From the IMG/VR virus record IMGVR_UViG_3300044627_003356: a stretch of 64,000 bases of DNA; one strand, given 5' to 3'. A program made the position numbers and the translations under genes. This document shows, one piece after another, positions 2,943 through 63,857 of the stretch. How positions within the stretch are numbered: position 1 is the first letter of the stretch; every line of letters starts with the position of its first letter. The notes under the pieces were generated by a model. That model saw only the letters and a list, made by a program, of their open reading frames with translations, had not been told where the DNA came from and made no database searches. This DNA comes from a virus.

Positions 2943-3465
2943 CTTCGTTCTCCTCTTCCCATTCACGCATTGATTCGGTGATACCATACATTTCATTCAA
3001 GGCTTCAGGCAGATATTCTTCCGCTTCATCAGCATTCATGCCAGAATAATCGTAGCATTCATCCGAACCTTCATACATTCCAGCAAAACCCATACCAGGT
3101 TCATGATAGTAGGCCCTAACATCAAAGCCTAATTCTTCCAACTTTGCATATGCCTCAATTGGAGGACCCCATGGACTATCAAAAGCACCAACTAATACGC
3201 CATTCTCATTGATTTCAGAACCATATGGCGAGATATCCCACTTGGTACCCCAATTATTCACACACCACGAATACCAGTCAGAAGCACCGTATTTCTCCAC
3301 CAATGCTTCATTGGTTTCACTTGGTGATGTGGTATCTTTCAATTCAACAGGCAATGGAATAAATTCATTCAAAAATGTGCCATCAGCAAATGCTTTGGCT
3401 GCCCGTTCTACCATTGCTTTATCTTCGTGATAAAGCTCAATATTATTATTACACCAATTTGGCAT
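2935..3465 (-). CDS. DUF1281/YubB ferredoxin-like domain protein
   Basis: MPNWCNN start, WYxWCVNNWGTKW and FDSPWGPP motifs. Confidence 0.8.
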   Translation of the reverse strand: MPNWCNNNIELYHEDKAMVERAAKAFADGTFLNEFIPLPVELKDTTSPSETNEALVEKYGASDWYSWCVNNWGTKWDISPYGSEINENGVLVGAFDSPWGPPIEAYAKLEELGFDVRAYYHEPGMGFAGMYEGSDECYDYSGMNADEAEEYLPEALNEMYGITESMREWEEENEDE

Positions 3466-3562
3466 AGTTTAATACTCCTTAATTACATAATAAATTAAAA
3501 AACTTGATGCTACCATATACAACAAAATACATATGTTTATTGCTACTAACATAATTCTCCCT

Positions 3563-3591
3563 ATTATAAAGGATTCTACCAAAAATGTCAA
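3563..3591 (-). promoter_or_regulatory. sigma70-like early promoter
   Basis: TTGACA-17nt-TATAAT perfect consensus. Confidence 0.8.
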
Positions 3592-3602
3592 GAACCCTTT
3601 AT

Positions 3603-3629
3603 AATAGCTGACCAAATTGGTCAACTATT
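3603..3629. promoter_or_regulatory. palindromic operator-like site
   Basis: AATAGcTGACCAAaTTGGTCAaCTATT imperfect inverted repeat just upstream of the -35. Confidence 0.5.
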
Positions 3630-3634
3630 GTGGA

Positions 3635-3922
3635 TTAATCACACAGATTAACCGAACAACCTAAGCGCAACTGGCGCCTTACTACATCCACACCAAGTAT
3701 GGTATCGGCATTTGACCATCTTAATGCACCATAACCACTTTGATTGGTGCCAAGACGACCAGATTTCTCCCATGCTTCACAGATTGCTCTGCATACCGCT
3801 GGTGTCAATTCACCATCATATGAAATGTCCACCGAATCTTCCCAAGTATCTTGGTATGAATGCATGCGATGGGTGCCTTCAATTTGCTTCCTAGTGCTCA
3901 CTAACAATTTACCACCGAACAT
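3635..3922 (-). CDS. hypothetical protein
   Basis: 95-aa ORF, GGAGG RBS. Confidence 0.7.
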   Translation of the reverse strand: MFGGKLLVSTRKQIEGTHRMHSYQDTWEDSVDISYDGELTPAVCRAICEAWEKSGRLGTNQSGYGALRWSNADTILGVDVVRRQLRLGCSVNLCD

Positions 3923-3923
3923 A

Positions 3924-4103
3924 CTACGCCTCCAATGTTAATTCTTCAATTTCAACAGATTCCATTTCAAAATTCATAATCTGCTCTTCTACCGTTTTAC
4001 TAAAATTTACGGCTTTATCATAATCAGAAAAGGCACGAAGATTTAACCATTCCCATCCAACAAGGTCAATAAATTGACCAGATTTCACAACATATACATT
4101 CAT
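3924..4103 (-). CDS. hypothetical protein (59 aa, not in ORF track)
   Basis: hand-translated MNVYVVKSGQF...EELTLEA; GGAG RBS. Confidence 0.6.
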   Translation of the reverse strand: MNVYVVKSGQFIDLVGWEWLNLRAFSDYDKAVNFSKTVEEQIMNFEMESVEIEELTLEA

Positions 4104-4188
4104 AATAATACTCCAATTAATAATAATACTAAACCAATACTAAACCGAGTTAATAACAGTTTATCCAAATAAGTCATTTCAAGCATAA

Positions 4189-4332
4189 TCACTCTTTATA
4201 ATCGGTATAACACTCAATGGCCGCTCTAACCAATTTAATATCAACACCGAGCTTTTTAGCGATTTGCTTTTCGGTCATACCATCTTGGTATAACTCTATG
4301 ATTTCTTCATAGGTTCTTTTCATATAACTCAT
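4189..4332 (-). CDS. small helix-turn-helix DNA-binding protein (47 aa, not in ORF track)
   Basis: hand-translated MSYMKRTYEEIIELYQDGMTEKQIAKKLGVDIKLVRAAIECYTDYKE; GAGG RBS; HTH pattern. Confidence 0.6.
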   Translation of the reverse strand: MSYMKRTYEEIIELYQDGMTEKQIAKKLGVDIKLVRAAIECYTDYKE

Positions 4333-4353
4333 ACTACCTCTTTTTTAATAATC

Positions 4354-4388
4354 TTACTAATAACCACTCATAGAATGGTTACTATAAA
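4354..4388 (-). repeat. conserved intergenic 12-bp triloop hairpin, copy 1
   Basis: UAGUAACCAUUC-UAU-GAGUGGUUAUUA; homologous to 5879-5913. Confidence 0.65.
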
Positions 4389-4389
4389 A

Positions 4390-4581
4390 CTACGGTGTAA
4401 TAAATTCTTTAGTTAATACTGATACAATTTTTTCCAATGATACATGGCGCCTTCTTTCCAATTTCTTTTCATTATACAATGATAACGCTTTATTATAATT
4501 GGATATTGATTTAATATCATTACAACCAAACTTAGGTTCGTACCAACTAACCTCATATCTAACATTTTTAAATGTTTTCAT
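4390..4581 (-). CDS. hypothetical protein
   Basis: 63-aa ORF coupled to upstream gene. Confidence 0.6.
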   Translation of the reverse strand: MKTFKNVRYEVSWYEPKFGCNDIKSISNYNKALSLYNEKKLERRRHVSLEKIVSVLTKEFITP

Positions 4582-4582
4582 A

Positions 4583-5359
4583 TTATGCCGCCTTATCTAA
4601 TTTGATAGTGAACGAATAATTTCCAACTGGATATTTCACGAAACCGCTCGTATCCTTCTTGGCCTTACCTTTGGCATATAGACCAACCACACAACCTTTA
4701 GGATCAAGAAAGCGTAGGTCGCTATCGTCACCATTGAATACGGATAGATTGTGATTAAAGAATTTCTTAGGCATTGCAGTACCTTTCTTGATACCAAACA
4801 CCACAGCAATATTCAATCCTTCTTCTACCGCACGCTTACAATCCATATAATTGCCATCCGCCATAGAAAAGGTCAAATGGTAATTGTCAATGTCAGCAAC
4901 CTTACGACCAATCACCTTGGTATAGTCATAGAATTGGATATCAGGGAAAGCTGCAAAGATGTTAGTAAAGACTTCACCATTACGCACAACCTCATACTTT
5001 TCCCATGATAAATCAGAGGTGCCATTCAATCTAAACACCGGTACTAAACCTAACCGATTAGACTGCTTGATACCTAATTCAATATCTTTAACTAAATCAA
5101 CCATGAATTCCGAACGGTTATCATAGAATTGCTTAGTCTTACGGATACGAGCTTGCTGAATAACATTAGTGGACTCACCACGCTTAAACATACCACCACG
5201 ACCTGCCAGATTAAGGCAAGAAGCAATACAACCAACCGTTGCCTTAGGACAGGTATTATGTCCAGATAATGAAGCAGGCGCAAGATGCAAAATGTAGGTA
5301 TTGTAACCTTGTGCCAAACCTTTCAAAATCTTAGGATTGCCAGTAGATAATAATTTCAT
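4583..5359 (-). CDS. GP88-family protein (radical-SAM-like Cys cluster)
   Basis: CPxAxxGCxxxCL, FRLNGTSD, FYDYTK, GDxSDLRFLD motifs. Confidence 0.8.
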   Translation of the reverse strand: MKLLSTGNPKILKGLAQGYNTYILHLAPASLSGHNTCPKATVGCIASCLNLAGRGGMFKRGESTNVIQQARIRKTKQFYDNRSEFMVDLVKDIELGIKQSNRLGLVPVFRLNGTSDLSWEKYEVVRNGEVFTNIFAAFPDIQFYDYTKVIGRKVADIDNYHLTFSMADGNYMDCKRAVEEGLNIAVVFGIKKGTAMPKKFFNHNLSVFNGDDSDLRFLDPKGCVVGLYAKGKAKKDTSGFVKYPVGNYSFTIKLDKAA

Positions 5360-52246: not shown

Positions 52247-52254
52247 TATAAATA
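52247..52254 (+). promoter_or_regulatory. T4-type late promoter for the plus-strand island
   Basis: TATAAATA 70 nt upstream of the 52325 ATG. Confidence 0.65.
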
Positions 52255-52288
52255 AGTATGTATTGAAACTTATATTGATGATTTACTG

Positions 52289-52317
52289 ATTATATAACAA
52301 TAACCAACGATTGTCAA
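52289..52317 (-). promoter_or_regulatory. sigma70-like promoter for replication genes
   Basis: TTGACA-17nt-TATAAT. Confidence 0.8.
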
Positions 52318-52324
52318 TATAAAA

Positions 52325-52603
52325 ATGGACTTTTTTAAGATTGTTGCCGAATTAGGTTTCCCAATAGCCGCTGCGTTTGCTGCAGGTTATTTTGTGTTCC
52401 TAACTTTAAAATTTATTCTGGCCGGTGTTACCGGTTCTGTCAAAAGTTTAAGTGGTATTATTACCGCCTTAGACAATCGTGTTAAAACAATGAACCATGA
52501 TGTTATCAGAATTGATACTCTAATGTCAAGCGCTATGGGTGTCAAACCTGATATCGACCGTATTGCTCGTGCAGACGGCAAGAACGATGCTAGGAGAGAT
52601 TGA
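52325..52603 (+). CDS. small membrane protein (GFPI motif), paralog A
   Basis: single TM then coiled coil; similar to 53000-53278. Confidence 0.8.
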   Translation: MDFFKIVAELGFPIAAAFAAGYFVFLTLKFILAGVTGSVKSLSGIITALDNRVKTMNHDVIRIDTLMSSAMGVKPDIDRIARADGKNDARRD

Positions 52604-52764
52604 TGCCCGCTTATCTTGAATTAGACGATTTGGAAGATTTGGTTATTCACTTCCATGACGTTGCCAGAATGATAGAACGTGAAATAGGTACTGGTGAATT
52701 GACGAAAGACATTAGAAGTTGTGGTGACCGATTAAAAGAATTACTCAAAGAAAGAATAGAGTAG
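52603..52764 (+). CDS. hypothetical protein (53 aa)
   Basis: hand-translated MPAYLELDDLEDLVIHFHDVAR...; AGGAG RBS, TGATG coupling. Confidence 0.6.
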   Translation: MPAYLELDDLEDLVIHFHDVARMIEREIGTGELTKDIRSCGDRLKELLKERIE

Positions 52765-52956
52765 TTGATGTATGTTGATGGTTACCTACTTTTAGTAATT
52801 TATTTGATTGCGGTGTTAGCGGCAGCAATTAGTGTATACGCTTTATGGACTTTAAAAGAAGTTGAAGAACAGTTAAAGAAAAAAGATAAACCTAATAAAC
52901 CTAATAACGCTTGGGATCATTATCACAATACTGCAAATCAAAAAAAAACATTCTAA
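52765..52956 (+). CDS. small membrane protein
   Basis: N-terminal hydrophobic helix. Confidence 0.55.
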   Translation: MMYVDGYLLLVIYLIAVLAAAISVYALWTLKEVEEQLKKKDKPNKPNNAWDHYHNTANQKKTF

Positions 52957-52999
52957 AGATAAAGCAAAAGGTTATTTCGATAACCTATAAGGAAATATT

Positions 53000-53278
53000 A
53001 TGGATTTAGTAGAAATAGTTAACAAATATGGTTTTCCAATTGTTGCAGCTGGCGGCATGGGATACTTCATTTATTATGTGTGGACTTGGGTAACAAAAGA
53101 AATTAAACCTGTATTGAGTGAAGCAAGTTCGGTATTAATTGCTTTGATTGACCGTGTCAGGATGTTAGATAATGATTTGATAAGATTGAATCAGAAAATT
53201 AACATCGTATTAATGATGCGAGAAATTAAAGAAGATGAAAAACACAAAAAAGATTCTAGTAACCCTCCTACTGATTAG
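53000..53278 (+). CDS. small membrane protein (GFPI motif), paralog B
   Basis: GFPIVAAGGMGYF and DRVRMLDNDLIRL resemble paralog A. Confidence 0.8.
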   Translation: MDLVEIVNKYGFPIVAAGGMGYFIYYVWTWVTKEIKPVLSEASSVLIALIDRVRMLDNDLIRLNQKINIVLMMREIKEDEKHKKDSSNPPTD

Positions 53279-53681
53279 TTCAAATTTATACGCAGCTGAG
53301 TTAATCCACCAATTTAATTCTCCATCCTTTAGTGGTATTGGTTATTCCAACCATGTTATAACCATTGAGCAATTAGAATCTCAACGCAAACAAAAAATAA
53401 GAGATGAAGCTAAATCGGCAGCTGATGCAGCTGAACGGGCAGCAAAAAATACCAATTTAGCTAAATTTTTAAATAATGTGGAATCTCGCATTTACGCACA
53501 ACTATCAAAACAGTTGGCCGACCAAATGTTTGCCGAAGGTGGTGCAACACAAGGAACAATGGATTTTCAAGGCACACAAATGTCTTGGGTTAACCTTGGT
53601 TCGGAAGTTCAACTAACAATTACTAATCCTGATGGCACACAAACAATAGTAACAGTACCTATTGGAACATTTGGTTTCTAA
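53235..53681 (+). CDS. csgF: curli assembly protein CsgF
   Basis: signal peptide, mature ELIHQFNSPSFSG (CsgF FxNPxFGG-like), ESRIYAQLS. Confidence 0.85.
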   Translation: MKNTKKILVTLLLISSNLYAAELIHQFNSPSFSGIGYSNHVITIEQLESQRKQKIRDEAKSAADAAERAAKNTNLAKFLNNVESRIYAQLSKQLADQMFAEGGATQGTMDFQGTQMSWVNLGSEVQLTITNPDGTQTIVTVPIGTFGF

Positions 53682-54464
53682 ATGAAAAAAACACTTATAG
53701 TTTTAACCATTTTATTTTTAACAGGCTGTGCTCAATTGCATATGCACTTTGCACAAGAAGAACCTGTGGAATTAAAACCAAAAGAAAATTTAATAACCAA
53801 ATTACCAAAGTTGGATGGTCCACCAATTACTATTGCAGTATATGGTTTCTTAGATAAAACAGGACAAAAGAAACCTGGTGATAAAATCGCATTGTTCTCT
53901 AGTGCCGTCACTCAAGGTGCAGAAGTATTCTTAATTAAATCATTACACGATTCACGAAATTGGTTTAAAGTGGTTGAACGAGTTGGTTTGGATAATTTAA
54001 TTAAAGAACGACAGTTAATACGCAACCAAAGAGAAGTCTATGAAGGCAAAAATGCTACGCCATTGAAACCAATGACGGTTGCTGGAGTAATTATTGATGG
54101 TGGTATTATTGGTTATGATAGTAATATACGAAGTGGAGGTAATGGTGCTCGATTTCTTGGTATTGGTGGTTCACAACAATATCGAGTTGATGAAGTAGTT
54201 ATCTCTCTTAGGTTGATTAGTGTTAATACCGGAGAAATATTAATGACAAATGCCGTGTCAAAAACAATTTTTAGTACGGCACACAATGTGGGTGTTTTTC
54301 GTTTTGTTGACCAAGGAACGAAATCGCTTGAATTGGAAAGTGGTAATGCTTTGAATGAACCCACAACATATGCAGTTCGAGTAGCAATAGAACAAGCTGT
54401 GTATGACATGATAATTAATGGAGAAAAAAAAGGTCTTTGGAAATTTAAACAAGAGGAAAAATAA
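53682..54464 (+). CDS. csgG: curli secretion channel lipoprotein CsgG
   Basis: lipobox LTGC; AVYGFLDKTGQ, FSSAVTQG, VERVGLDNLIKERQLIR, GGIIGYD. Confidence 0.95.
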   Translation: MKKTLIVLTILFLTGCAQLHMHFAQEEPVELKPKENLITKLPKLDGPPITIAVYGFLDKTGQKKPGDKIALFSSAVTQGAEVFLIKSLHDSRNWFKVVERVGLDNLIKERQLIRNQREVYEGKNATPLKPMTVAGVIIDGGIIGYDSNIRSGGNGARFLGIGGSQQYRVDEVVISLRLISVNTGEILMTNAVSKTIFSTAHNVGVFRFVDQGTKSLELESGNALNEPTTYAVRVAIEQAVYDMIINGEKKGLWKFKQEEK

Positions 54465-54466
54465 AA

Positions 54467-55060
54467 ATGAAACTTAAAGCAATTGCTCTAATTATGGCGA
54501 TTCTTGGGTTTAATTATGCTGTAGCAAATGATGTTTATGTTGAACAAGTTGGTAGTAGTTCAACCGTAACAATTACACAAGAAGGTACAGGTAACCAAGC
54601 TGGAAACTCAACCGATTCACTTTATATTGGCTCTGGATCCAATGTCGTTACAATTGACCAAATAGGTGACAGTAACATTTTAGCCATGGTTGTTAATGGC
54701 GCTTCGGCCGATGTAACAGTTAACACCACGGGTAGTGGTAATCAACAAACGATTGATTGTGGTACAACTAGCTCTGCTGGATGTTCTGGTAGCACAATCA
54801 CGCAAATTGTTGACGGTGATGATAACACCATTACACAAAGCTTAGGTGCAGGTGCAAATCACACCAGTAACATTACAGTAACAGGTAGTGATAATGCAGT
54901 AACACATACCAGCACCGCAACTGGTACAACATCAATGAACGCAACGATTACTGGTAGCACAAATACTGTTGGTGTTACACAATCTGGAATGACTACACAA
55001 AATGTTACGATTAACTCAACTGGTAATAGCAACACTATTACTGTTAACCAGTCAAACTAA
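54467..55060 (+). CDS. curlin-repeat secreted protein (CsgA/B-like)
   Basis: signal peptide; repeated N-x5-Q-x-G-x2-N units; Q/N/G/S/T-rich. Confidence 0.8.
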   Translation: MKLKAIALIMAILGFNYAVANDVYVEQVGSSSTVTITQEGTGNQAGNSTDSLYIGSGSNVVTIDQIGDSNILAMVVNGASADVTVNTTGSGNQQTIDCGTTSSAGCSGSTITQIVDGDDNTITQSLGAGANHTSNITVTGSDNAVTHTSTATGTTSMNATITGSTNTVGVTQSGMTTQNVTINSTGNSNTITVNQSN

Positions 55061-56087
55061 TTTTGCAGCTGTAGGCAAAGTTACGGAACAATCTGGTCCA
55101 ACAGAAATAGTTCGCAATAAAAAATCAATACCTAGTGTGATAAACACTGGTGTTGAAATGAATGATACAATAGTGACAGCGAAAGCGAAAGCCAAGCTGA
55201 CTTTTCAGGACAACACGACAGTCAATATTACCGAACAATCAAAATTGGTAATAGATGACTTCGTGTATGATCCGAATAAGGGCACAGGAAAACTGGCAGT
55301 TAAGGTTGCCCTTGGTACTGCACGATATACTTCAGGTCAAATAGCTAAGAATAGTCCACAATCAGTAAGTGTTCAAACACCAACTGCTACGGTTGCAGTT
55401 CGTGGTACAGACTTTTCAATGACCGTAGATGAATTGGGTCGGTCTCTAATTATGTTATTGCCATCATGCGACAAAGATAAAAAGAAATGCGTTACTGGTG
55501 CCATCGCAGTTAAAAATGATGCAGGTGAAGTTTTTATGAATGAAGCATACCAAACTACTTTAGTTATTTCAACAAGTATATCACCATCGGCACCTGTTAT
55601 AGTTAACATAGACCAAGCCAACATTAATAATCTTTTGATTATATCTCCACCAAAAGAAGTCAAAGAAACTTATGTTGAATCTAAAACGGCTTTAGATGTA
55701 AACTTCTTGTCCTTAGACCTTTTAAAATTTACTGGTTTAGATGAAAATCAACTAGAAAACTTTAAAGAGCTGGACATGAATTTATTGGACATTGATTTAT
55801 TAGGCAATCTTTTGGATGCTGAAAATGCGGCGCTTGCTGCGAACCAAGAGGTATTATCGGTTGAAACAAAACTATTACCAGGATACAATGCGGCTTCTGG
55901 TGCTCGATACTTTCTTAACGATGACCAATCCAAAATAAGTTATTGTAAATATGGTGGTAGTCACACCGCTTGTGTTATTGCATCGGCAGACGAAAGTAAA
56001 ACTTTATCATTTAATCAAGATGGTTCACCACTAATACAAAACATCAATAAAGGTGGAGATTCAAATATCACCATAATACAAAGATGA
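55002..56087 (+). CDS. periplasmic FecR-domain protein
   Basis: signal peptide; DTIVT, LTFQDNT, SKLVID, TPTATVAVRGTDF motifs. Confidence 0.9.
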   Translation: MLRLTQLVIATLLLLTSQTNFAAVGKVTEQSGPTEIVRNKKSIPSVINTGVEMNDTIVTAKAKAKLTFQDNTTVNITEQSKLVIDDFVYDPNKGTGKLAVKVALGTARYTSGQIAKNSPQSVSVQTPTATVAVRGTDFSMTVDELGRSLIMLLPSCDKDKKKCVTGAIAVKNDAGEVFMNEAYQTTLVISTSISPSAPVIVNIDQANINNLLIISPPKEVKETYVESKTALDVNFLSLDLLKFTGLDENQLENFKELDMNLLDIDLLGNLLDAENAALAANQEVLSVETKLLPGYNAASGARYFLNDDQSKISYCKYGGSHTACVIASADESKTLSFNQDGSPLIQNINKGGDSNITIIQR

Positions 56088-57268
56088 AAAAATTATTTTT
56101 GTTTCTAATGATGATATGCAGTATTGCTCGAGCAGATATTTTAGACTTGAAGGTTAGTACCGCACAGATATTTGATGTGCAATGGTATATTTCAGGTAAT
56201 ACATTGTATGCCAGTGGTTTCAATTATATTTACGCTTCTGTGAATTATGCAACACAGACTACTAGTGCGGCCCGTTGGACTGCGGCTCAAACAACAGACG
56301 CTGGTGCTAACGGCCGTTATATAGGATTCTTCAACAGCACAACCAATCCTGGCACTTACGGTATGGCCGTGTTCAATAGTAATGGCACCAGATACAAAAC
56401 TATCAACAACACCGGATCGTTTAGAGCGTTGGCCAACGGCGCCATCTTTTATAACGGTAACGGTATGTGGGGTACATTAATAACTACGGGACAAGGTTAT
56501 AACTACGGGCAAAGCGGATCGTGGGCAGTGACGCAGAGCAATCCAACTAACACACAATTGCAAGCTTATGTTCCTCCAAGTTCAACACCTTTATCTGCTG
56601 GCCAAACCGCAGCACCTCCAGCGCCAACATATTCAGCCACAATAACAACAGAACAACAAAATAAAATTAATGAGGCACGAGCAAGACAAACATATAAGAA
56701 TGAAATTAATATTGACCAAATAGGACATTACAATAATATTGATGTTATACAATCTGGATATTATCATTTAATCGATATTAATGTTAATGGTGATACAAAT
56801 CTAATTGATGTTGCACAATACGGAATCAAAAACTATGCCAAAGTTCAAACAACAAATGGCAATAATAATTCAGTAAATATATTTCAACACAATACAGGCG
56901 GCGCTCAGGTACTTGGTCATTTCTCGGAAACATTAATTTCTGGAAGTAATAATACAGTAACTTTAAATCAAACGGGTGATGGAGAAAAAAGAAATTTTAC
57001 TAATGTAAGTGGTAATTTAAATACCATTAATCATTTACAAAATGGCACCGGTACAAAATACTCTGACATAAAAGCCACTGGAAACGGCCATACGATCACA
57101 CTAGACCAAAAAGACGGTGGTGCTCACGCAGCTCGGATTGAAGTAACAAATAATGGCGGAGCTTCTACTGTAAACGTATCTCAACAAGGCAATACCAATC
57201 AAACTTATTCTGTTCAACAACTTTGTGCTACCGTAAGTGGATGTTCAGTCGGTATTCAACAGCAATAA
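56084..57268 (+). CDS. secreted protein: N-terminal globular domain plus C-terminal curlin repeats
   Basis: signal peptide, Pro-rich linker, NEINIDQIG..NNIDVIQSG repeats, terminal Cys pair. Confidence 0.8.
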   Translation: MKKLFLFLMMICSIARADILDLKVSTAQIFDVQWYISGNTLYASGFNYIYASVNYATQTTSAARWTAAQTTDAGANGRYIGFFNSTTNPGTYGMAVFNSNGTRYKTINNTGSFRALANGAIFYNGNGMWGTLITTGQGYNYGQSGSWAVTQSNPTNTQLQAYVPPSSTPLSAGQTAAPPAPTYSATITTEQQNKINEARARQTYKNEINIDQIGHYNNIDVIQSGYYHLIDINVNGDTNLIDVAQYGIKNYAKVQTTNGNNNSVNIFQHNTGGAQVLGHFSETLISGSNNTVTLNQTGDGEKRNFTNVSGNLNTINHLQNGTGTKYSDIKATGNGHTITLDQKDGGAHAARIEVTNNGGASTVNVSQQGNTNQTYSVQQLCATVSGCSVGIQQQ

Positions 57269-57278
57269 ATAATTTACT

Positions 57279-59285
57279 ATGAAAAAAATATTATTCTCTC
57301 CATGGACGGCCGTAATCACATTGTTGGTATTACTTGCAATCCGGATTGCAGACCCTATGTTTTTGGAATCTGTTCGACTTCGTTATTTTGACCAATTAAT
57401 AACCTCAAAGGAGACAACTGTATCTCAACAGGTACACGTTGTAAACATAGATGACGAAACTATTCGACAAAAAGGACAATTCCCGTTCCCTCGTAGAGAA
57501 TATTCCAAACTTATTACTGATGTTTATGCTCGTGGTGCTGGGCTGGTTGTCTTTAATATCTATATGCCTGAGTCTGACCGTTTTGGCCAAGATTTGGATT
57601 TAGCACAAACTTTTAAAAAATATCCTGTTGTATTACCACAAACAGGAACAAATGATAATTTAAAATCAAAATATCCACCATTCAGGCCAGGTGTTTCTGT
57701 GATTGGTGGTGAAGATGTAGGAATAAAATATGAAAACATTGAACCCAATATACAACCATTCAATTCAACTGCTGCTGGTATTGGTATTGTTAACACCTTA
57801 CCAGAACTTGATGGCGTTACCAGACGAGTTCCTATGGTCGTCAGCTCACAACAAAAGTTGTATCCGAGCATTAGTCTTGAAACATTGCGGGTCGCAAGTG
57901 GAGACCCAAGCTTCCAAGTCAAAGTCACCGAATACGGAATCGAAGCCGTCAGAATTCCAAAATTTGGTAAAATTACAACAGACAACGTGGGTCGAATTTG
58001 GGTTGACTGGTCAACAAAACCAATTCAACATAGTGCCAACAACTTACCCAATGATTTCAAAGGAGGAATCGCCATCATCGGTGTTACCGCAAAAGGTCTT
58101 AACAACCCTGTCGGAACATCTATGGGGGCAGTCTATCCACATTATTTACAAGCAGCTGTATTAGATACTGTAATTTCAGGTACTAATATATCTCGAACAG
58201 ATTATGCTGACGGTGCAGAAATATTATATACATTTATTGCTTGCCTATTAGCTCTTTTCTTTACGAGATATACACATGGATACATTGCACCAATCACGAT
58301 TGCCGTATTTACTTACTTTGGCACCAAGCAATTATTTTTGGGACACCAGTACCTTTTTGATGCTGTATTTCCTATACTCACCATTACGCTTTGCTACGCT
58401 CATGGATACACAGTCAAATTTTTGTCCGAGCTCAAACAAAAGCTCCAAATCAAAAAACAATTTGGAACATATTTGTCTCCAGCACTAGTAGAAAAATTGC
58501 AGAAGAATCCAGAACTGTTAGTTCTTGGTGGAGAATCAAGAGAACTTTCTATTATGTTTACGGATGTTCGTGGATTTACAACAATTTCCGAACACTATGG
58601 TAAAGATGTTCAAGGTCTTACTAAGATTATGAATCGATACATGACTGCAATGACAGCAAAGATTATAGAGAACAATGGAACATTAGACAAATATATTGGT
58701 GATGCTCAAATGGCATTTTGGAACGCACCTGTAGATGAAACCAATCATGCTAAGATGGCAGTTAAAACTGCATTACAGATGATGAATAGTTTGGATGAAT
58801 TCAATAGAGAAATTGAACAAGAAGGTATTCCTGCTTTTGGTATGGGTTTAGGTATCAATACAGGCACCGTTGTTGTTGGTAATATGGGTTCAAGTCAACG
58901 ATTTGATTATACTTGCCTTGGTGATTCGGTTAATTTGGCATCAAGACTTGAAGGACAAAGTAAACCCTATGGTGTTAAAATTATTCTTGGACCACTCACA
59001 GCTGAACAAGTAAAGGATGAATATCCTGTTGTTGAATTGGATTGTATTGCAGTTAAAGGTAAAAAAGAAGGAGTTAAAATATACACTTTAGCTCCAGATA
59101 ATGAACTACACCAACAATGGTTGAATTTATATTATCGTGGTCAATGGAACAAAGCATTGCTATTAATAGAACAACTAATTAATGTTACTCCGGAATTACA
59201 ACATTATTATGAAAACATGTCAGAAAGATTAAAAGAAGGAGTACCTTCTAATTGGGACGGCACATATCGAGCTACGAATAAATGA
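57279..59285 (+). CDS. CHASE2-domain class III adenylate cyclase
   Basis: VNIDD, GQFPFPR, DGVTRR CHASE2 motifs; three TM helices; FTDVRGFT, DKYIGDA, YTCLGDSVNLASRLE, VKGK. Confidence 0.95.
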   Translation: MKKILFSPWTAVITLLVLLAIRIADPMFLESVRLRYFDQLITSKETTVSQQVHVVNIDDETIRQKGQFPFPRREYSKLITDVYARGAGLVVFNIYMPESDRFGQDLDLAQTFKKYPVVLPQTGTNDNLKSKYPPFRPGVSVIGGEDVGIKYENIEPNIQPFNSTAAGIGIVNTLPELDGVTRRVPMVVSSQQKLYPSISLETLRVASGDPSFQVKVTEYGIEAVRIPKFGKITTDNVGRIWVDWSTKPIQHSANNLPNDFKGGIAIIGVTAKGLNNPVGTSMGAVYPHYLQAAVLDTVISGTNISRTDYADGAEILYTFIACLLALFFTRYTHGYIAPITIAVFTYFGTKQLFLGHQYLFDAVFPILTITLCYAHGYTVKFLSELKQKLQIKKQFGTYLSPALVEKLQKNPELLVLGGESRELSIMFTDVRGFTTISEHYGKDVQGLTKIMNRYMTAMTAKIIENNGTLDKYIGDAQMAFWNAPVDETNHAKMAVKTALQMMNSLDEFNREIEQEGIPAFGMGLGINTGTVVVGNMGSSQRFDYTCLGDSVNLASRLEGQSKPYGVKIILGPLTAEQVKDEYPVVELDCIAVKGKKEGVKIYTLAPDNELHQQWLNLYYRGQWNKALLLIEQLINVTPELQHYYENMSERLKEGVPSNWDGTYRATNK

Positions 59286-59986
59286 ACATTATACTTTACA
59301 CACTCATAGTAACACACATAACAATTATATCAGTAACGCTATATCTACATCGTAGTCAAACACATCGTGGAGTTACATTTAATCCTGTAGTAAATCATTT
59401 TTTTAGATTTTGGTTATGGATGACTACTGCAATGGTTACCAAGCAATGGGTAGCAATACACCGTAAACACCATCAGTATAGTGATGTAGAAGGAGACCCA
59501 CATAGTCCTAAATTATTTGGCATTAAAAATATATTATTTCGTGGAGTTTATTATTACTATGTTACGGCCAAAGATGCGAGAATGACATTATCTTATGGTA
59601 AAGGAACACCAGAGGATTGGATAGAGAAAAATATATATTCAAAATATAACTATGCCGGTGTTTGTTTGATGTTGATAATCAATGTCGTATTATTTGGATG
59701 GATTGGTCCTATAATTTGGTTGATTCAAATGTTATGGATTCCATTTTGGGCAGCTGGTGTTATCAACGGAATAGGACATTGGTTTGGGTATCGTAACGGA
59801 ACAACTAGAGATAATTCTCACAACATACTTCCAATAGGCATTTGGATTGGTGGAGAAGAATTACATAACAATCATCATTTGGATCCAGCAAATCCAAAAT
59901 TGAGTAAGAAGTGGTTTGAATTTGATGCTGGTTGGTTCTACATTAAAGTATTAGAAAAACTCAAACTAGCAAAACTTAAGCATTAA
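59282..59986 (+). CDS. membrane fatty acid (acyl-CoA/lipid) desaturase
   Basis: His boxes HRSQTH, HRKHH, HNNHH; DPHSP; GEELHNNHH. Confidence 0.92.
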
Positions 59987-60299
59987 AAGAAGAACCGCAA
60001 CCACAGGTAGATTTGGCATTTGGGTTACTAATAACAAACTGTGAATTGAATTTTTCTTCTTTATAATCCAATGTTGCGCCTTGTAGATATTGTGAAGAAA
60101 TTATATCAACGACCACTTTGATGCCTTCATTTTCAATCACAAAATCATCTTCATTAATTTCTTCATCAAAAGTAAATCCATATTGATAACCAGAGCAACC
60201 GCCGCCTTGCACAAACATTCTTAAAGCTCCATTTGGTAGTTTTTCTTCAACCAACAAATCACGAACTTTATTAATTGCACTACTGGTTATTTGAATCAT
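59976..60299 (-). CDS. erpA: A-type Fe-S cluster carrier (ErpA/IscA family)
   Basis: GGGCSG and CGCGSSF motifs. Confidence 0.9.
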
Positions 60300-60582: not shown

Positions 60583-60657
60583 TGGTTGCGGGGGAAGGAA
60601 TCGAACCTACGGCCCCTGGATTATGAGTCCAATGCTCTACCTCTGAGCTACCCCGCT
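60583..60657 (-). tRNA. tRNA-Met(CAT) with A1:A72 mismatch
   Basis: cloverleaf, CTCATAA anticodon loop, TTCGA T-loop, encoded CCA. Confidence 0.85.
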
Positions 60658-60744
60658 TCAGTATATATGTTGAAAACTAAAATGACTTTTTTATATCTTG
60701 AAATCGTAGGAAAAAATTTCGGAGGCTCCGACTGGCCAACCTTT

Positions 60745-60981
60745 TTAGTAAATAAAGATAACTTCGTTGATGGGAACAATATAATTTTCATCTTCAATTT
60801 TTACTGCTCTGTTCCAATTTAATAATACTTCATCATCGACTGAAACTTCATCAACTTTAGGACCAAGAGAAACAACTTTTGCACGGTCTGGTGCTTCAGT
60901 ATGTTTCAATATGATACCCGATTCGGTTTGTTTTTCTGCAGCAATTCGTGTTACGATAATGTTATCTCTTAACGGTTTCAT
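60745..60981 (-). CDS. groES: GroES-like co-chaperonin
   Basis: MKPLRDNIIV, TESGII, VVSLGP. Confidence 0.85.
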   Translation of the reverse strand: MKPLRDNIIVTRIAAEKQTESGIILKHTEAPDRAKVVSLGPKVDEVSVDDEVLLNWNRAVKIEDENYIVPINEVIFIY

Positions 60982-60997
60982 AATTTATTCTTTATAG

Positions 60998-61071
60998 TGG
61001 TGCCTCTTGATAGAATCGAACTAACAATTCAAGATTACAAATCTAGCGTTATACGATTTAACTAAAGAGGC
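60998..61071 (-). tRNA. tRNA-Thr(TGT)
   Basis: GCCTCTT/AAGAGGC acceptor, loop TTTGTAA, TTCGA, CCA. Confidence 0.85.
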
Positions 61072-61235
61072 CGAGAGGTTAGTGTTGTAATGCGTTTTTG
61101 AATTTTGGCTTTATCTTTTGGTCTGCTAGACTTTTCCAACATATCATTAAGTTGTTTGAGATTGAGAGTTCCTAATCTTGGCTTACCGTTTTTGGTTAAC
61201 ATAGGATTTTTCTTTTTTGATTTCGAAACTGCCAT
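61062..61235 (-). CDS. basic hypothetical protein (57 aa)
   Basis: hand-translated MAVSKSKKKNPMLTKNGKPRLG...; AAGGA RBS; stop lies inside the tRNA-Thr 5' end. Confidence 0.6.
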   Translation of the reverse strand: MAVSKSKKKNPMLTKNGKPRLGTLNLKQLNDMLEKSSRPKDKAKIQKRITTLTSRPL

Positions 61236-61253
61236 GATATAGTCCTTAAAAAT

Positions 61254-61321
61254 TGGAGCGGTGCCACTGCTATGCTCAGGTAATACAAGAGGGTATCTTA
61301 TATCGTGCTATCACTCACCGC
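61254..61321 (-). ncRNA. non-canonical tRNA-like RNA with Gly acceptor identity
   Basis: GCGGTG/CACCGC stem + U-CCA; three internal hairpins; no TTC T-loop; own promoter. Confidence 0.6.
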
Positions 61322-61329
61322 ATGAAACA

Positions 61330-61358
61330 AGTATAACATTATATAGGCTGATTGTCAA
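61330..61358 (-). promoter_or_regulatory. sigma70-like promoter
   Basis: TTGACA-17nt-TATACT ending 8 nt before the tRNA-like RNA. Confidence 0.7.
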
Positions 61359-61878
61359 TAGTTATTTGTGGTATATTTTTCCATCCTAAAGGTTCTGTTT
61401 CAATTTTTGTATCTGGATTACTGACGCCTTCAAATACTTGCCAAAGTTTTTCTTTAATAGCAAATTTGGTAAATAAACCGGCTTCATATCCGTATGCTTC
61501 TATTTCCCAAGGTTGGATCCAATAATCAACCGTATCAGAATCAACCCTTTCACCTTTCCAACGAGTCAATTTCTCATTGGTTTCACCATAAACATATTGT
61601 TTAATGTGAACAAATTCATGTGCCAAAGTTTTGAGAATATCATAAGCACCAATACCGGGATGAAGTTCTATTTCAAATTCTCTAGGTTTGCCACTATCAT
61701 TATAATCTTCTACAGAGGCGTATCCGTAAGCATCTAAAGCTTTATTAAATTTTACTCTAACAAATATATTATCTAGCATTTTTTCTGATAACAGTTCTTT
61801 AGCGTAAAACTGTGCGGCCCGTTTTACAAACGGCCTAAAGCGTTTTTTATCGGGACATCCAACTATACTGAGTTGCAT
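61339..61878 (-). CDS. putative zinc metallopeptidase
   Basis: TLAHEFVHIKQ (HExxH) and PWEIEA; start moved to MQLSIV with AGGAG RBS. Confidence 0.8.
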   Translation of the reverse strand: MQLSIVGCPDKKRFRPFVKRAAQFYAKELLSEKMLDNIFVRVKFNKALDAYGYASVEDYNDSGKPREFEIELHPGIGAYDILKTLAHEFVHIKQYVYGETNEKLTRWKGERVDSDTVDYWIQPWEIEAYGYEAGLFTKFAIKEKLWQVFEGVSNPDTKIETEPLGWKNIPQITIDNQPI

Positions 61879-61932
61879 CTGAGGTTTCTCCTGTAAAAAC
61901 CAATTAACACTTCTCAAATATTTAGGTACTAT

Positions 61933-62379
61933 CTACTTTTCACCAGGTGAAATTTGTTCTACTAAAATACCACAATGATTTAAGAAGTCTATGCCGATGG
62001 TATCTCGATACGAATTACGGTAATATACCTTTTTAATACCAGCGGTATAGACTTGTTTTGCACAATGAATACACGGTGCATGGGTCAGGAACATGGTGGA
62101 ACCATCTCCAGATTCACTACTCTTGGCCAGTTTAGCGATGGCATTAGCTTCTGCATGGATCACTTCATCCTTGGTTTTGGTGGTAGTTCCCCCATCTTCT
62201 AGGTATTCTACCACTTCCTCACATTCGTTGGTCCAGCCAGCTGGCATACCATTATAACCGATAGATATAATTCGGTCATCTTTTACTACAATGGCACCGA
62301 CCTGTAGTCGTTTTGCAGATGACAATTTAGCAAATCGGTCTGCAACATCCATGTAAGCGTCAATAAATTTTTGTTTCAT
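61933..62379 (-). CDS. cd: dCMP deaminase
   Basis: GYNG, HAEANA, PCIHC; start moved to MKQKF. Confidence 0.92.
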   Translation of the reverse strand: MKQKFIDAYMDVADRFAKLSSAKRLQVGAIVVKDDRIISIGYNGMPAGWTNECEEVVEYLEDGGTTTKTKDEVIHAEANAIAKLAKSSESGDGSTMFLTHAPCIHCAKQVYTAGIKKVYYRNSYRDTIGIDFLNHCGILVEQISPGEK

Positions 62380-62390
62380 AATTATAAATT

Positions 62391-62467
62391 TGGTGGGCCT
62401 TGTAGGACTCGAACCTACGACCAAAGGATTATGAGTCCTCTGCTCTAACCAACTGAGCTAAAGGCCC
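62391..62467 (-). tRNA. tRNA-Ile2(CAT, lysidine type; Met not excluded)
   Basis: GGGCCTT/AAGGCCC acceptor, CTCATAA loop, TTCGAG, ACCA. Confidence 0.85.
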
Positions 62468-63333: not shown

Positions 63334-63396
63334 TTACCGACTTTTTGGATAATTCAACTGTTCCCATTCCTCATCGGTTACGGGCCACCAGTTCAT
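63334..63396 (-). CDS. 20-aa micropeptide
   Basis: MNWWPVTDEEWEQLNYPKSR; ATG overlaps the sHSP stop (TAATG). Confidence 0.45.
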   Translation of the reverse strand: MNWWPVTDEEWEQLNYPKSR

Positions 63397-63857
63397 TATT
63401 GACTCTTTTCTTTAATGGCAATCTTTTTAATGGTATCTTGAGTCTGCACAAGATTTTCTAACCAAACTTTTAACATACCATTTACCATTTCTGCCTGGTC
63501 AATTTCAATCTTGTCAGCCAATGTAAATGAACGTGTAAAGTTGCGGTTAGCGATTCCTTTAAAGAGGAAATTTTCTTCTTCTTTAAGTTCATCTTCTTTT
63601 GCAGAGCCTTTAATAACCAATTTATTACCTTCAAGAGTTACTTCAATATCAGACTTGGCAAAACCAGCAACTGCCAATTCAATGACGTACTTGTTCTTGC
63701 TTACTTGTTTGATATTGTATGGGGGATACGATGGTACATTCTTTGCAATATTTTTGGTTACTTCTTCAATGTCTTTGAAAAAGTTATCGTAACCAACGGT
63801 GAATGGATCCAACGTTTTATGAAAGTCAAATAGACTTGGTAATAGACTTGTAGTCAT
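63396..63857 (-). CDS. small heat shock protein (Hsp20/IbpA-like)
   Basis: YPPYNI, ELAVAGF, GIANRNFTRSF, NGML motifs. Confidence 0.95.
   Translation of the reverse strand: MTTSLLPSLFDFHKTLDPFTVGYDNFFKDIEEVTKNIAKNVPSYPPYNIKQVSKNKYVIELAVAGFAKSDIEVTLEGNKLVIKGSAKEDELKEEENFLFKGIANRNFTRSFTLADKIEIDQAEMVNGMLKVWLENLVQTQDTIKKIAIKEKSQ

Follow-up and report, generated by a model that had tools for sequence, protein, structure and literature searches.

A viral curli secretion module with FecR-domain and CHASE2 adenylate cyclase genes in a divergent T4-like marine myophage

We analyzed a 64,000-nucleotide (nt) stretch of DNA (hereafter, the window) from IMG/VR virus record IMGVR_UViG_3300044627_003356, which is a segment of a T4-like marine myophage, and focused on the block of plus-strand genes at 52.3-60.0 kb. 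The block codes for the curli (type VIII) secretion proteins CsgF and CsgG, two curlin-repeat proteins, a secreted FecR-domain protein and a receptor adenylate cyclase with a CHASE2 sensor domain. It is another copy of the viral type VIII secretion system (T8SS, curli) module of SAR11 and OM43 phages, this time carried by a divergent T4-like marine myophage. The genes for the curli proteins, FecR and the cyclase form a single conserved, linked set and are inherited as a unit in hundreds of viral contigs. The reading that we favor, with slightly better than even confidence, is that the module combines curli export with FecR-CHASE2 signaling to cyclic AMP (cAMP).

The module has been noticed before. 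A 'curli operon' was reported in 2020 by Zaragoza-Solas (PMC7029224). In 2022 Buchholz modeled CsgGF and proposed a lysis role for the Methylophilales phage Melnitz (PMC9004378), and in the same year Wittmers described the arrangement CsgF-CsgG-CsgA/B-FecR-(CsgA/B)-cyclase in podo- and myo-pelagiphages, together with its phylogeny, global distribution, metatranscriptomic expression of the viral genes and alphaproteobacterial affinity (PMC9599517). Since the module was thus already described in 2020-2022 in pelagiphages and Melnitz, the block represents a rediscovery in a divergent member. An earlier note on this DNA, made from the sequence alone, had taken the block for a new system and had supposed that curlin subunits were not recognized in aquatic myophages. 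Neither statement holds: curlins, FecR and cyclase are recognized in PMC9599517 and in the Melnitz GenBank annotation (CsgF, CsgG, curlin repeat, FecR, curlin repeat, cyclase). The note had also listed prior characterization of this phage module among the grounds for refuting its idea. That ground applies in the sense of description and not of experiment, as our literature search found no experimental characterization of the viral module. The pelagiphage papers make no mention of CHASE2, read FecR as an iron regulator and call the small proteins of the module histidine kinases. What we add to the published picture is the CHASE2 sensor domain, the identification of FecR and CHASE2 as a bacterial sensor pair, a copy of the entire module on a bacterial chromosome, the finding that the 'histidine kinase' label is unsupported, and swappable, lectin-like heads of the second curlin.

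Melnitz and HTVC008M share both the gene set and its order with our block (two small membrane proteins, CsgF, CsgG, curlin, FecR, curlin, cyclase), as well as the T4-like setting between replication and structural genes (HTVC008M genome, Zhao 2013). The differences from these two phages are that the proteins encoded here are 30-66% identical to theirs and that the block has two extra small open reading frames (ORFs) and a coupled desaturase gene. A megablast search against 50,697 phage records returned no nucleotide-level relatives of the block, and its relatives are detectable at the protein level only.

The CsgF homolog (53235..53681; all features of the block lie on the plus strand) matches Pfam PF10614 with an E-value of 6e-17 (62.4 bits, cut-off 25.8), covers profile positions 4-132 of 132 and has an N-terminal hydrophobic leader that we assign as a signal peptide. 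A phmmer search with this protein against solved structures matched no CsgF chain. CsgG (53682..54464), the outer-membrane lipoprotein pore with the lipobox LTGC, matches PF03783 (E 5e-52; 176.8 bits, cut-off 20.8) and aligns over its full length to the E. coli CsgG structures (E 1.6e-49), lipobox Cys included. Of the three positions that form the E. coli constriction, its loop retains the Phe ring and differs at two, Tyr and Asn. The first curlin (54467..55060, 197 residues), a fiber subunit with a signal peptide, matches Curlin_rpt with 29.1 bits (cut-off 20.7). Its repeats are rich in Gly, Asn, Gln, Ser and Thr and give weak matches to the CsgA/CsgB NCBIfam models. It belongs to the core of the module and was recovered from nearly all of the related loci. 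According to the N-termini and hydropathy, signal peptides occur also on the second curlin and on the FecR protein. Compared with the E. coli/Salmonella csgBAC-csgDEFG system, the CsgG lipoprotein pore, CsgF and secreted curlin-repeat subunits are shared. The fiber subunits here are longer and very divergent, one of them having a non-curlin head, and the operon also includes genes for a FecR-domain protein and a cyclase. There is no CsgE, CsgC or CsgD: none of the three has a Pfam or NCBIfam match among the ORFs of the block, and they are absent from the published viral and alphaproteobacterial modules too (PMC9599517).

The second curlin-repeat protein (56084..57268, 394 residues; Curlin_rpt 37.8 bits) is homologous to the first one (hhalign 99.9%) and has a more complex layout. 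Its signal peptide is followed by a head of ~170 residues, a PAPTYS linker and a C-terminal curlin-type solenoid with two conserved Cys residues. In the structural model, residues 200-394 mostly have a predicted local distance difference test (pLDDT) score above 80, and the head, at a pLDDT of ~30, is not modeled. Foldseek found no significant match of this model in the PDB, only generic beta-helix entries, and the structural matches in the atlas are all below a template modeling (TM) score of 0.5. The gene is optional across relatives, and its heads vary by phage. Locus L036 (5008-6225) has a PA14 domain according to Pfam, and the proteins of L059, L015, L074 and L045 align with that head. 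A different head, possibly of the F5/8-type-C kind judging by eye and by a weak atlas hit, is found in L066 (7663-8898). Curlin 2 is a modular protein, in which a conserved solenoid is combined with swappable, putatively lectin-like heads. Such variation of heads suggests diversifying selection on a surface-binding function.

The FecR-domain protein (55002..56087; Pfam FecR, E 6e-12) consists of a signal peptide, a FecR/PupR-type beta domain (approximately residues 25-210), an acidic, Leu-rich, disordered linker of ~90 residues and a small C-terminal beta domain. Its AlphaFold model has a mean pLDDT of 75, and residues 52-210 match the PupR cell-surface signaling domain (6ovk) with a Z-score of 15.2 over 135 residues. 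The FecR domain directly follows the cleavable-type leader; there is no anti-sigma domain and no transmembrane part. These features do not support the iron-regulator reading given in the pelagiphage papers. The FecA-FecR-FecI system shares the PupR-fold periplasmic beta domain and the principle of an outer-membrane component talking to a periplasmic FecR domain, but here the anti-sigma domain, the membrane anchor, the extracytoplasmic function (ECF) sigma factor and the TonB-dependent transducer are missing, and the output is a nucleotide cyclase. The C-terminal beta domain ends in a curlin-like ITIxQ motif, and hhalign gives a weak alignment (probability 36%, E 4e-4) of the C-terminus with the repeats at the end of curlin 1, so the protein may carry a curlin-like C-terminal tail. 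Foldseek also matched the model with 5ix9, a 'cell surface anchoring domain' (Z 6.9), but we discarded this clue, as the match maps to the N-terminal FecR region and not to the C-terminal domain. One homolog search with the FecR protein returned close viral and metagenomic relatives only, with no bacterial context.

The receptor adenylate cyclase (57279..59285) combines CHASE2 (Pfam E 8e-36) with a class III cyclase domain (Guanylate_cyc, E 7e-22). Its predicted topology comprises an N-terminal transmembrane helix, periplasmic CHASE2, a transmembrane bundle and a cytoplasmic catalytic domain: CHASE2 spans residues 14-324 according to Pfam, hydrophobic segments lie at approximately residues 3-30 and 310-328, and another one before residue 385 was read by eye. 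All the class III catalytic residues are in place, namely the two metal-binding Asp (D429 and D475), the adenine-specifying Lys with its Thr/Asp partner (K471 and T545) and the transition-state Asn and Arg (N552 and R556). D429, K471, D475 and R556 are found in 93 of 93 aligned relatives. Position 545 is occupied by Thr in 79, Asp in 12 and Ser in 2 of them, and position 552 by Asn in 81 and Ser in 12. Among solved structures, those nearest to the protein come from active class III cyclases; when it is aligned to Cya2 (2w01), one of its Lys residues takes the place of a Glu. We predict an active, ATP-specific enzyme.

How firmly these genes belong together can be judged from related loci. At least 550 relatives of the cyclase are present in IMG/VR. 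We scored 80 cyclase-seeded and 31 CsgG-seeded loci using tblastn and hidden Markov models (HMMs) built from viral homologs. Of the 55 cyclase-seeded viral loci that extend 6 kb or more upstream, 52 contain the complete set of five partners, namely the small membrane protein, CsgF, CsgG, curlin 1 and FecR. The three exceptions (L029, L046 and L070) have less than 1.3 kb (~1 kb) of sequence downstream of the cyclase. As the csg block lies downstream in some genomes and these contigs end there, they are uninformative on its absence, and we dropped their 'cyclase-only' interpretation. Conversely, CsgF, curlin 1, FecR and the cyclase are all found in 22 of 22 CsgG-seeded loci with enough downstream DNA. 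Gene order is variable: in some loci the two small-protein genes are found downstream on the opposite strand, and in some the csg and FecR genes are inverted relative to the cyclase. That the linkage survives such rearrangement argues for function. The earlier note had considered the whole block as one system and had named a failure of the curli and FecR/cyclase genes to co-occur in related phages as grounds for giving up the idea. Co-occurrence is near-total. The claim stands for the curli genes, FecR and the cyclase as a conserved linked set, with curlin 2 as an optional member, and it does not extend to the desaturase.

Several observations on the related loci deserve mention. The closest CsgG relatives (L085, L087, L089, L090, L094 and L111) come from viral contigs 236-344 kb long, and CheckV rates that of L087 as 99% complete; the module is thus also present in jumbo-sized relatives. 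One lineage (L008, positions 3078-5093, and also L005, L020, L026, L027, L084 and L091-L093) has an ORF of ~670 residues (671 in L008) without any Pfam family between csgF and csgG. A Metallophos (calcineurin-like phosphoesterase) gene adjoins the cyclase in ~10 viral loci (L029, 7055-7798; L036, 6414-7160; L046, L047, L037, L041, L061, L063, L070 and L079), and its product is a candidate cAMP phosphodiesterase partner; tblastn found no such gene in our window. The whole viral-type module, small membrane proteins included, was also encountered in metagenome-assembled genomes of Flavobacteriaceae, Pelagibacter, Rhodobacteraceae, Pirellulales and Luteolibacter (L114-L118 and L121-L125). The contigs concerned are probably of phage origin and were assigned to bacterial genomes by mis-binning.

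A bacterial counterpart is found on a Caulobacteraceae chromosomal contig with housekeeping flanks, in the order Metallophos-CsgF-CsgG-curlin-curlin-FecR-CHASE2 cyclase (Metallophos at L120, 5785-6645). This copy has a full-length FecR of the viral type and lacks the small membrane proteins. We sampled 401 alphaproteobacterial genomes, and just one of them, the module-bearing Caulobacteraceae, has a FecR of the full-length viral type, complete with the linker and the tail; this type was found only where T8SS is present. In a phylogenetic tree of cyclases, those linked to the module group in a single clade, distinct from the other bacterial CHASE2 cyclases that adjoin FecR (Shimodaira-Hasegawa-like approximate likelihood ratio test, SH-aLRT, 99). 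The Caulobacteraceae pair lies inside the viral radiation, in an unresolved polytomy with long branches that does not settle which side was the donor and which the recipient.

Bacterial homologs of the FecR protein adjoin full-length CHASE2 cyclases in ~25 of 67 loci. FecR-CHASE2 pairs have also been reported in the Burkholderia BiofilmReg operon (PMC5192318) and in S. meliloti (cyaD1-smc02177, PMC5498481), and in S. meliloti signaling from the outer-membrane NsrA to the CHASE2 cyclases CyaD/CyaK is experimentally established (PMC7529298). The earlier suggestion that FecR-domain and CHASE2 genes make up a genuine bacterial pairing is therefore correct. Both members of such a pair are present in our block; the curlin 2 gene is located between them, and in many relatives they are directly adjacent. 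What the viral and bacterial cases share is a gene for a secreted FecR-domain protein beside that for a CHASE2 membrane receptor, the class III cyclase output (S. meliloti and the ~25 of 67 loci) and, in S. meliloti, an outer-membrane input. Unlike the viral module, the bacterial loci have no T8SS and code for TPR proteins or for fusions of LysM and FecR, while the viral FecR adds the acidic linker and the C-terminal beta domain. In the neighborhood of bacterial FecR genes, the 'curlin 2' HMM gave weak matches, which we traced to PA14 domains caught through the PA14 heads included in the HMM.

The block begins with two small single-pass membrane proteins of 92 residues each (52325..52603 and 53000..53278), the second of which overlaps the csgF start with its 3' end. 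Both belong to the phage-only family phrog_18771 (E 5e-35 and 1e-36, respectively) and are paralogs (32% identity, E 9e-15). Hydropathy of the first one indicates an N-terminal hydrophobic helix with the GFPI motif, followed by a helical tail. These proteins are the best-conserved parts of the block, reaching 99% identity among relatives. We found no support for the published label 'histidine kinase': at 92 residues, they have no HisKA or HATPase_c match in Pfam at E-values up to 5 and none in NCBIfam. Their nearest named ESM Atlas clusters are YvrJ and Holin_BhlA (scores 0.84-0.86, a lead only), and neither YvrJ nor BhlA gives a Pfam match to them. Between the paralogs there are two ORFs that the earlier note did not mention. 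One codes for a small acidic protein of 54 residues (52600..52764) with no Pfam match and with homologs in a few relatives (L015, L067, L086, L089, L094 and L101; 37-53% identity). The other, putative, codes for 63 residues (52765..52956) that are hydrophobic according to hydropathy, and has no homolog among the related loci.

Upstream of the block, 71 nt before its first ATG, lies the T4-type late-promoter-like motif TATAAATA (52247..52254, plus strand). In the window itself the motif is not enriched, with five occurrences against 7.9 expected by chance. Of 81 related loci, 29 have it in the 200 nt that precede the first small-membrane-protein gene and 58 have ATAAATA there, although many of these loci are close relatives; the chance rate per 200-nt stretch is a few percent, by a rough base-composition estimate without a shuffle control. 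Its recurrence ahead of the homologous first gene makes late expression of the block plausible. The same intergenic region contains, on the minus strand (52289-52317), a perfect sigma-70 consensus (TTGACA-17 nt-TATAAT, 12/12), which faces a minus-strand gene for a 120-residue protein and the DNA polymerase and replication genes. This arrangement suggests a divergent early/late promoter pair.

The remainder of the window is a chain of minus-strand genes, so the block is indeed, as had been claimed, its only plus-strand gene run. Likewise, the ORFs named in the earlier note were all found where it had placed them on the plus strand, its domain calls were all recovered by Pfam above the curated cut-offs (CsgF, CsgG, Curlin_rpt twice, FecR, CHASE2, Guanylate_cyc and FA_desaturase), and its description of tight packing from csgF onward is accurate, with overlaps or gaps of at most 10 nt. 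The flanks, on the minus strand throughout, code for family B DNA polymerase, UvsX, DnaB-type helicase, dCMP deaminase, Cpn10, HSP20 and tRNAs. The last gene of the block codes for a DesA-family fatty-acid desaturase (59282..59986; Pfam FA_desaturase, NCBIfam DesA family E 1e-117). A 4-nt overlap links its start to the stop of the cyclase gene, so that it is co-transcribed and translationally coupled here. Nevertheless, the desaturase is outside the conserved module: it is missing from the Melnitz and HTVC008M modules, and only in a few related loci does it lie within 10 kb of the module, at other positions and on either strand. Its inclusion in the system by the earlier note was therefore not upheld. 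Auxiliary genes adjoin the block on the minus strand, coding for an IscA/HesB-type Fe-S assembly protein (59976-60299), Cpn10 (60745-60981), dCMP deaminase (61933-62424) and the HSP20 small heat-shock protein (63396-63857), and two tRNA-Met genes and one tRNA-Thr gene are located at 60583-62467.

Taken as a single pathway, the module would work as follows. Late in infection, the phage would install CsgG-CsgF in the host outer membrane. The curlins would be exported through it and polymerize into surface fibers, which curlin 2 would decorate with its variable, lectin-like head. The periplasmic FecR-domain protein would act as a partner or ligand-presenting subunit of CHASE2, as in the bacterial pairs, and the state of secretion or of the fibers, or some envelope cue, would set cAMP synthesis in the infected cell. 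From fiber formation onward, these steps are what we infer from the gene content. We favor this reading on the grounds of the domain calls and topology, the conserved cyclase residues, the PupR fold match and the linkage (52/55 and 22/22). It also draws on the same gene order in Melnitz/HTVC008M and in Caulobacteraceae, on the bacterial FecR-CHASE2 pairs and S. meliloti signaling, and on the published expression of the viral genes (PMC9599517) together with the recurrent late-promoter motif.

A number of points weigh against it. Neither a CsgE-like gate nor CsgC was found in the block. Formation of extracellular amyloid fibers by the curlins is predicted from the genes, and neither fibers nor clumping were seen in Melnitz-infected cultures (PMC9004378). 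We infer the contact between FecR and CHASE2 from gene neighborhood alone. Bacterial FecR-CHASE2 cyclase loci usually contain TPR proteins and no T8SS within 10 kb, and some published podovirus modules are without the cyclase (PMC9599517). As to the recipient of the signal, no cyclic nucleotide monophosphate (cNMP)-binding protein was found in five related phage genomes, and no cNMP-binding domains in three small, incomplete Pelagibacter assemblies.

It might be argued that the module represents two unrelated cassettes, curli and FecR-CHASE2 cyclase, which travel together without functional coupling. That the two halves can work apart follows from the bacterial FecR-CHASE2 loci devoid of T8SS, and classical curli operons are in turn without FecR or cyclase (PMC9599517). 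The podovirus modules lacking the cyclase (PMC9599517) and the inverted orientation of the cyclase relative to the csg-FecR block in L055, L068 and L082 point the same way. However, the FecR gene always directly follows curlin 1, is located between the two curlin genes when curlin 2 is present, and codes for a tail weakly resembling curlin repeats. Co-occurrence is near-total in both directions, the module-linked cyclases form a clade of their own (SH-aLRT 99), and the full-length viral-type FecR occurs only with T8SS (1/401 alphaproteobacterial genomes). A lack of functional coupling between the two halves is, in our view, unlikely. We consider as improbable to a similar degree a function in lysis timing, where the CsgG-CsgF pore, perhaps together with the YvrJ/BhlA-like small proteins, would be a gated secretin or pinholin-like channel opened under the control of the cyclase and FecR, the curlins being plugs or accessories. 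The lysis role was proposed for Melnitz on the basis of structural modeling and synteny, and the lack of clumping in culture agrees with it (PMC9004378), as do the upstream late-promoter motif, the small membrane proteins being the most conserved in the block and the identity of their nearest named clusters. Yet the scores of these clusters are under the level at which the tool offers more than a lead, and an outer-membrane pore does not depolarize the inner membrane. Moreover, curlins with signal peptides are kept (curlin 1 universally, curlin 2 commonly), and together with the diversifying lectin-like heads this fits surface display better than a plug, while the Caulobacteraceae chromosomal copy has dispensed with the small membrane proteins and retained the rest.

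We regard as very unlikely the idea, put forward in PMC7029224 and PMC9599517, of an uptake or sensing channel, with CsgG as an open outer-membrane pore importing iron chelates or cofactors and FecR as an iron-type sensor. The absence of a CsgE gate and the altered constriction loop of CsgG (two of three E. coli positions) speak for it. On the other hand, the FecR protein has neither the cytoplasmic anti-sigma part nor the transmembrane part by which FecR-type iron signaling is defined, Pfam detects no TonB-dependent transducer or ECF sigma factor in the block, bacterial FecR homologs pair with CHASE2 sensors and not with iron transporters, and CsgF and the curlins would be left without a role. 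Returning to curli export coupled to FecR-CHASE2 signaling, there is a more specific version of it, in which FecR would be a trans-envelope tether. The curlin-like C-terminal ~60 residues would join or cap the fiber or dock at CsgG-CsgF, the ~90-residue linker would thread CsgG, and the FecR domain would sit in the periplasm on CHASE2. This version seems to us unlikely. If it were true, fiber assembly, load or attachment would be converted directly into cAMP, making the module a secretion-coupled mechanosensor or occupancy sensor that is rare in bacteria (Caulobacteraceae).

According to published work, the module is present at every ocean virome station examined, and phages that carry it infect some of the ocean's most abundant bacteria. 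If the module makes infected cells sticky or shifts their second-messenger state, then aggregation, carbon export and phage transmission would be affected.

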